A stretch of 64,000 nt of DNA, from assembly GCA_964016885.1 (NCBI GenBank), contig OZ024740.1, positions 52,576,001 through 52,640,000 on the forward strand. The letters run 5' to 3'. Made by a program: the position numbers and the translations under genes. The DNA is from Eledone cirrhosa. Lineage: Eukaryota. Position 1 is the stretch's first letter; each line of letters begins with the position of its first letter. Below the pieces are notes generated by a model that had not been told where the DNA came from, made no database searches, and saw only the letters and a list, made by a program, of their open reading frames with translations. Positions 10,460-11,452 of this stretch are shown one piece after another.

Positions 10460-11452
10460 TTCTTCTCACTTTCCGTTGTATATATATTATTTCTTCTCAC
10501 TTTCCGTTGCTTAAACCATTTTGTTTGTTACCCTAACGTCCCCTTTATTTACGTGTCCCAACGACTTTTTTTAGCCGTTGTTCGCACCAACCTGAGGCAT
10601 ATGGCCCTTAAAGCGATGAAATGCCTGGGACGGTTGGAGCGTCACTGATGAAGGACTCACTTTTTCATATGCACCACCATTTGCAACGCGCAGCCATCAT
10701 TATTATCATATTTACACATAATTTTTCTTCTGCTGCTACCCGTCCGTTTCGTTCTTTGTACCTTTTACCCTTTCTCGTTCTTTGTACCTTTTACCCTTTC
10801 TAGCAGTCTCTCTCTCTGTTAGCCTCCTCCTCAACTTTCACTCACTCATTCTCTGTCACTACCTCTCCTCCTCCTCTTTCCTCCTCCTCCTTCAAGTTTG
10901 ACCTGTGTGTAATTCTTTTCTCGCGCGTTCCTGGTCAAGCTGGTATGGAATTTCTTTCTCTCTCTCTCTTTCGTCTGCGACTTCACAAAACTTATGTTTA
11001 CCGAATTTGTAGACCAGACCCCTTCTTCTTCTTCTTCTTCTTCTTCTTCTTCTTCTTCTTCTTCTTCTTCTTCTTCTTCTTCTTCTTCTTTTTCTTCTTC
11101 TTCTTCTTTTTCTTCCCCCGTTAGACCTGTGCGAAATTCCTTCCTTGCTCACATTTCAACCAGGTTTGATGGTCTTTTGTCTCTTGTTCACGATTTCACC
11201 GAGTTTATATTCATAGAGATCTGGGACTTGTCTATTTCTTCTCACTTTCCGTTGCTTAAACCATTTTGTTTGTTACCCTAACGTCCCCTTTATTTATGTG
11301 TCCCAACGACTTTTTTTAGCCGTTGTTCGCACCAACCTGAGGGATATGGCCCTTAAAGCGATGAAATGCCTGGGACGGTTGGAGGGTCACTGATGAAGGA
11401 CTCACTTTTTCATATGCACCACCATTTGCAACGCGCAGCCATCATTATTATT
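10460..11452 (+). mobile_element. Insertion with ~210 bp direct terminal repeats (10490-10710, 11236-11452), probably a PLE 3' end/pLTR pair; third copy at 45270-45520 (-)
   Basis: Near-identical direct repeats, (TA)n flanks, internal (CTT)n, hammerhead-like core motifs. Confidence 0.7.

Follow-up and report, generated by a model that had tools for sequence, protein, structure and literature searches.

A predicted hammerhead ribozyme with an upstream-completed stem II in a Penelope-like tandem repeat of Eledone cirrhosa

The window analysed here is a 64,000-nt stretch of the Eledone cirrhosa genome (GCA_964016885.1, contig OZ024740.1, positions 52,576,001 to 52,640,000 of the forward strand), and coordinates are counted from its first base. 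It contains two insertions of a non-coding repeat element together with several other genes and repeats:

10488–11456, plus strand: family A insertion, one 745-nt unit and a 224-nt terminal direct repeat (pseudo-LTR), non-coding, with (TA)n flanks
45267–45523, minus strand: family B insertion, 5'-truncated, 257 nt, from a sister family with a 617-nt unit
3647–3717 and 55745–55817: two tRNA-like Rfam matches above the gathering score, which may belong to an abundant SINE-like repeat
9567–9980, minus strand: C-terminal GIY-YIG endonuclease fragment from a Neptune-like Penelope element, with a 3' UTR to about 8290 and no Pfam match
11720–12150: inverted repeat element in which GAAA precedes a palindromic CG stretch and TC, an arrangement known from the minimal type I hammerheads of Penelope elements; the core upstream is altered
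13387–14139: 39-nt tandem array
17543–18979 (minus strand) and 45967–48273 (plus strand): two pieces of LINE reverse transcriptase, a PHD finger being present in one
24927–25607, minus strand: glutathione S-transferase of 226 aa in a single open frame, apparently intronless
51344–52147 and 59604–60410, plus strand: two related zinc-ribbon transposase-like frames without a Pfam match, similar to Merlin/IS1016 transposases

An exact 3'-end pattern match located at least 1,425 insertions of the element in (TA)n tracts of the 3.0-Gb host genome, a first look having given 1,659 and 2,817 candidate copies, and three contig searches for the element returned subfamily variants only. The microsatellites and Naiad remnants of this genome point to an octopus-like cephalopod. 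Apart from families A and B, whose best-matching copies (chosen for similarity) are 98–99% alike, a third family (C) and a family D with a 530-nt unit were found. Retrozyme units usually measure 170–400 nt; those of the present families span 530–745 nt. The 3' ends lie about 110 nt past the predicted cut, near unit position 110, and the inverted 5' arms stop at unit position 69–70, 40 nt before the 3' end. A "tail" of this kind in Penelope-like elements has been linked to two start sites of the reverse transcriptase (PMC11167929). A Penelope-like terminal repeat had been suggested as the carrier in an earlier note made from the sequence, and the fixed 3' end, the 40-nt tail, the inverted arms and the TA targets support this. 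The (TA)n target, the pseudo-LTR, the 30–40 nt tail and the inverted 5' arm are Naiad-type traits, described as such anatomy in PMC8557442 and PMC11167929, and are also common to other EN+ PLEs. The window unit itself is non-coding, without an ORF bearing the N-terminal GIY-YIG, the CxC linker, DKA and RT. As in non-LTR retrozymes, non-coding units stand in tandem with one predicted hammerhead each.

The same note had placed three copies of a structured motif at 10586–10670, 11331–11415 and on the reverse complement of 45308–45391, and all three were recovered there, the first two within one insertion (10488–11456). A 14-nt seed matched three times in the window against a chance expectation of 0.34, and three or more matches appeared in 0 of 100 shuffles. 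The stem III, the AUA triplet, the stem I, the CCAACC/GGTTGG helix and the CTGATGA that it described are all in place. The single mismatches of copy 1 (C-C in stem I, at C10640) and copy 2 (G-G in stem III, at G11343) proved real and are missing from the commonest genomic variants, while the two C-G to U-A changes in stem I of copy 3 are genuine and mark a second subfamily. Rfam reported no ribozyme at the site, and the motif matches none of its families. The parts of the motif are as follows:

10577–10580, plus strand: P-1 upstream strand of a predicted 4-bp helix with the linker 10628–10631; 93.4% paired, two pairs with two-sided change
10582–10585, plus strand: displaced stem II 5' strand (UCGC), predicted to pair with 10613–10616
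10587–10592, plus strand: P0 5' strand (CCAACC), pairing with 10632–10637; 96.5% paired, 5/6 pairs with two-sided change
10596–10608, plus strand: block S, with the stem III 5' strand, AUA, the predicted cut after A10601 and the stem I 5' strand
10613–10625, plus strand: block G, with the stem II 3' strand 10613–10617 (U11.1 being 10617), GAAA 10618–10621 and the stem III 3' strand
10632–10652, plus strand: P0 3' strand 10632–10637, stem I 3' strand 10638–10644, CUGAUGA 10645–10651 and the 10.1 base 10652
10596–10600 with 10621–10625, plus strand: stem III pairing
10602–10608 with 10638–10644, plus strand: stem I pairing
10648–10668, plus strand: competing 3' hairpin over core A6–A9, ending at the alternative 3' end of the element, unit position 69
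11327–11397, plus strand: second copy of the ribozyme, with its predicted cut after A11346; the 40-nt tail comes next and extends to 11456
45326–45332, minus strand: core of the third ribozyme copy, with the predicted cut between 45376 and 45375, inside the family B insertion

The core elements follow each other as cut site, GAAA and CUGAUGA, i.e., in the block order S-G-C, and the full chain reads II(5')–P0–III/cut site/I–II(3')/GAAA/III–P0–I/CUGAUGA. None of the cyclic orders (C-G-S, G-S-C or S-C-G) is present, so the order fits none of the hammerhead types I–III, as had been noted. The description as a non-cyclic pseudoknotted hammerhead also holds, although the S-G-C order as such has already been published as type SGC (Eckert, Friedrich, Weinberg and Weinberg, 2023; PMC10085705). 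A canonical type I reading was rejected for want of a GAAA downstream of the core, and a minus-strand reading because no core exists there and the fixed element end marks the plus strand as the RNA. The 1-bp stem II of the earlier note applies to the strand 3' of the core; beyond it, a further 4–5 bp form with an upstream strand lying outside 10586. The bases before GAAA pair with this upstream strand (10582–10585), which lies immediately 5' of P0, the CCAACC helix, and continues into it, so that the opening of the chain falls directly behind CUGAUGA. Since the strand completes stem II, the wiring differs from that of type SGC. The motif is thus predicted to be a hammerhead opened right after CUGAUGA, with its stem II completed by a strand upstream of the whole motif. 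We put the probability that each unit of this non-coding Penelope-like tandem repeat encodes such a self-cleaving hammerhead, as read from sequence, at about 75%.

Of the two assemblies proposed earlier, a pseudoknot or a dimer/tandem, the pseudoknot is retained, and the dimer is unnecessary because every strand lies within about 70 nt. Dimer or trans action, in which the S-G hairpin of one unit would receive the CUGAUGA block from a second unit and the strain of the double pseudoknot would be relieved, would suit the tandem units, the readily forming P0+III hairpin in nested predictions and the view that metazoan Penelope hammerheads act as dimers (PMC4209133). It is nonetheless very improbable given the short span of the strands, a stem III of 5–6 bp that is non-palindromic, and the SGC and CSG monomers of Eckert et al., which cleave during transcription (PMC10085705). 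Beside the helices of the main fold, an 8-bp extension of P-1 would compete with P0. An alternative helix of 7–8 bp (10573–10580 with 10628–10635) covaries between families A–C and D and would displace P0; it is possibly a conformational switch.

The note had called for covariation in collected genomic copies, and the helices covary. The alignment comprised 19 natural copies of equal spacing from seven lineages, hand-picked as common or distinct variants; 93.8% of its cells were paired and 17 of the 28 pairs showed two-sided change, compared with 32–53% paired in slid control models. None of the 500 shuffles reached the observed covariation, a figure to be read as a count rather than a probability, the lineages being related. 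Stem III was 100% paired with two two-sided pairs, and stem I 94% paired with 6/7, next to the P0 figures listed above. The upstream stem II, which has 4 bp in families A and B, was 84% paired with one two-sided change (C-G to U-A). The core was invariant across the alignment, and in an unselected set CUGAnGA, GAAA and the UH triplet were intact in 128 of 138 complete copies. Moreover, compensatory changes distinguish the young families A, B and C, the 10.1–11.1 pair included. The closing pair of stem II is A-U (or G-U) in the window families and G-C in families C and D.

The placement of GAAA before CUGAUGA is not confined to these families. The corresponding pattern gave 77 matches in the host genome vs. 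2 for the control, and a looser version 425 vs. 93; the 77 matches belong to a number of repeat families that are unrelated to each other and in which stems I and III are paired. Among the loci collected, a filter for these two stems kept 257 of 495 spaced matches, which form 11 clusters; in these, the bases preceding GAAA pair with a strand immediately 5' of the P0-type helix. Within this set, a duplex-energy test favored the upstream stem II in 10/11 clusters (p = 0.01), and a parser, which often took an alternative register of P0, divided the families 5 vs. 5 between upstream and downstream (p = 0.43).

On a rival reading, the motif would be a normal type-SGC hammerhead whose stem II has shrunk to 1 bp and is supplied from downstream; the upstream pairing would then act as an accessory pseudoknot and not as half of a split core. 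Three observations fit this: in the window lineage the base after A9 can pair with 11.1, the single 10.1–11.1 pair being standard in 16 of 17 gap-free rows (U-A, C-G, A-U or U-G); family D has a possible 3-bp downstream stem; and a natural hammerhead with a 1-bp stem II and a pseudoknot has been published as active (PMC3088659). The type-SGC descriptor of Eckert et al. describes a downstream stem II of G-C plus 2–6 bp (PMC10085705), and a 6-bp downstream stem II was only 43.8% paired in our alignment, short of that description. Further evidence on this choice came from the Naiad retrotransposons.

Craig et al. (2021) reported Naiads as being without canonical hammerheads and listed eight unexplained "half cores", including those of Octopus and Euprymna elements (PMC8557442). 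Inspected by eye in the supplement of that paper, Naiad_Obim and Naiad_Ovul have the S-G-C wiring in their 3' UTRs, with an upstream GACACC facing GGUGUC; nematode and other Naiads in it are wired likewise, and several others, nematode ones among them, are C-S-G (PMC8557442). For a wider sample, one Naiad protein led to 340 relatives, and an alignment of 43 of these yielded 364 metagenome stretches that were confirmed; the 80 best were scanned irrespective of block order, selecting by the core and stems I and III only. Ribozyme matches occurred at 18 of the 80 loci, all on the sense strand after the ORF, i.e., in the 3' UTR, and 16 of them were S-G-C, two C-S-G and none canonical. The antisense control gave one match, and looser thresholds returned the same 18 loci plus five weak matches in or before ORFs and two antisense ones. 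The other 62 loci had no match, in many cases on account of short contigs; at least 300 nt followed the ORF in 59 of the 80. At the gathering score, Rfam reported no ribozyme in the 16 loci with matches that were submitted to it, nor in 20 loci without. In five tested ORFs (L322, L330, L352, L373 and L387), an N-terminal GIY-YIG preceded the RT motifs. Naiad ORFs of about 1,150–1,300 aa are present at L352:202–4122, L354, L355, L372, L376 and L391; a domain scan of the first of these placed a ubiquitin carboxyl-terminal hydrolase domain (PF00443, E 1e-33) at its C-terminus. At some molluscan Naiad 3' ends there is a conserved motif of twister-like appearance. The motif is found in the supplement of PMC8557442.

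After removal of two duplicates, 14 distinct S-G-C motifs remained. Their pairs were counted by script, since a MAFFT alignment had missed the register of the upstream strands. All 14 have an upstream stem II of 5–6 bp with a G opposite C11.1, hence the same G-C closing pair as in families C and D, and 0–1 nt before P0. The mean partner score was 16.6 upstream vs. 6.4 downstream; the upstream strand beat downstream and far windows in 14/14 and shuffles at p < 0.05 in 12/14. The base after A9 cannot pair with C11.1 in 12 of the 14, whereas the upstream G always can, within a 5–6 bp helix. Furthermore, the upstream strand sits where stem II precedes the I–II helix in the two predicted type-CSG hammerheads of Naiad 3' UTRs (L321:2760–2850 and L387:3770–3870). 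The ordinary type-SGC alternative is on these grounds improbable, and the Naiad form is therefore described as CSG and SGC in circularly permuted form, with the opening placed between A9 and 10.1. The opening would lie at A9/10.1 in the autonomous Naiads and seemingly one base later (10.1/10.2) in the window lineage. Hammerheads of PLEs and viroids often have one more base between positions 9 and 10.1 (PMC4209133, PMC1636495), which makes an opening there plausible. As such a circular permutation, the motif would share its core fold with the tested SGC and CSG ribozymes of Eckert et al. Judging from the best 80 of the 364 confirmed metagenome relatives, on which the host range rests, this core-opened layout, beyond the six thought possible, is quite probably the usual ribozyme of many Naiads across invertebrates.

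Cleavage is predicted after A10601, and hammerheads with AUA triplets and with a 1-bp stem II have been reported as active (PMC1636495, PMC3088659). The 5' ends of genomic insertions bear on this prediction. TA-joined 5' junctions step up at the predicted cut, with 26 of 31 loci within −3 to +9 when the first 100 of 513 rows were counted by hand; two of the loci have a flank in common and could represent a single event. This corresponds to about 6 junctions per position at the cut vs. about 1.2 (15 over 13 positions) at an AT-rich control, the former value being derived from a reverse-strand count of 88, with the junctions upstream of the cut extrapolated from the hand tally. In a set of 90 unselected insertions, used in the order in which they occur in the genome, 13 of the 88 ends evaluated fell within −4 to +35 (p = 0.0025; two locus-edge ends dropped). 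The signal could be inflated by TA microhomology or by stalling of the reverse transcriptase at the fold. In 73 of the 90 insertions the sequence continues past the last copy's cut site, so that linear RNA cut there is not the principal template; a part of the templates may start at the cut, and most would be uncut or circular.

The hairpin considered earlier as a competitor of the core is real in the predictions: in nested folding, A6–A9 fall in it at 0.52–0.97 in 8 of 11 representatives, pseudoknots lying outside such models. As it recurs in several families, its role may be to dampen the ribozyme, in which case it would be no refutation. Folding z-scores, likewise from nested folding without pseudoknots, were unremarkable. 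In the window families, position 11.1 is U instead of the usual C, which counts against activity. Together with a stem II of 4 bp, the 3' hairpin dominant in the predictions and the 73/90 insertions passing the cut site, this U11.1 would agree with an ancestral fold that has lost all or nearly all catalytic activity in families A and B, the region being kept only as a recognition structure of the Penelope-like protein. It would also agree with the Anolis Poseidon element, in which insertion in vitro is reported to be unimpaired in ribozyme mutants (PMC11167929). The compensatory changes between the young families A, B and C, which extend to the 10.1–11.1 pair, and the step-up of 5' junctions at the predicted cut speak against it, and we regard it as unlikely.

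If the hammerhead is active as preferred here, cleavage after A10601 would take place part of the time, damped by the 3' hairpin over A6–A9. Transcripts that read through would be trimmed in this way, and RNA one unit long would be set free, possibly to be circularized. A Penelope-like RT/endonuclease, most plausibly that of a Naiad, would then use chiefly uncut or circular RNA as its template for insertion into (TA)n, with two start sites separated by 40 nt.

The mobilizer of the window element is possibly a diverged Naiad or a Neptune-like element. Naiads of the host genome are decayed, with 35 matches, all partial and most with stops, and none of the 20 stretches examined in it carried a ribozyme in a Naiad 3' UTR. 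The host genome yielded no autonomous partner whose 3' end matches that of the element, even though Naiads share the ribozyme wiring. Protein searches with the decayed fragments returned 0 and 1 proteins, and viral contigs gave nothing. The GIY-YIG fragment at 9567–9980 was rejected as a partner, being a C-terminal, Neptune-like endonuclease with microsatellites between it and the element; where family D lies beside a similar fragment, it is an independent insertion.

Overall, this is a covarying hammerhead, of inferred activity and function, in a new wiring of a recently described kind and with a strong link to Naiads. Eckert et al. took CUGAnGA and its adjacent stem strands as contiguous, which gives six possible orders (PMC10085705), and the present motifs appear to break this assumption of an inseparable CUGAnGA. 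From the absence of hammerheads in Naiads, Craig et al. reasoned that the ribozyme might be dispensable or parasitic for Penelope-like elements (PMC8557442). If Naiads carry permuted hammerheads, their apparent lack of hammerheads would be explained, the dispensability argument would need revisiting, and the "half cores" would become directly testable. Non-circular permutations would also pass from rare metatranscriptome RNAs to thousands of copies in animal genomes. That a single clade of retroelements has both C-S-G and core-opened forms suggests interconversion by tandem duplication, and a hammerhead with its catalytic strand last would be a compact natural design for co-transcriptional control. 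In the literature covered, neither SGC nor CSG hammerheads are described from animal genomes or from Naiads, and no stem II strand is placed ahead of the core, though subscription papers may hold a prior description of either.

The closest known systems are the type-SGC and type-CSG hammerheads, reported from metatranscriptomes only and from two metagenome sequences, respectively, with type SGC given as absent from the genomes of known organisms and with cleavage at 0.007–0.19 per minute (PMC10085705). The present motif resembles them in its non-cyclic order, the short linker between stems I and II, the I–II helix abutting stem I and an equal set of helices. It differs in that the 5' strand of stem II and the adjoining strand of the I–II helix come first in the chain, so that "block C" is split, and in its location in an animal genome and in retroelement 3' UTRs; the P0 helix, a feature of type SGC, is present (96.5% paired), but its partner strand lies upstream. 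The pseudoknotted (PK) hammerhead (Zhan et al., 2024; PMC11300833) likewise has a single 10.1–11.1 pair by A9–G12 and otherwise takes helix II from another strand, but its partner is the loop of hairpin IV and its A9–G12 are linked through a loop. Here, 10.1 and 11.1 are not loop-joined, the chain departs behind A9/10.1, and the blocks follow each other as S-G-C. Animal non-LTR retrozymes (bioRxiv 10.64898/2026.07.22.740005; PMC4209133) are similarly non-autonomous, tandem and Penelope-linked with one hammerhead per unit, whereas their hammerheads are type I and often dimer-dependent. With the Naiad PLEs (PMC8557442), the window element has in common the (TA)n target, the pseudo-LTR, the tail, the inverted arms and the ribozyme wiring, and it differs from them in being non-coding.
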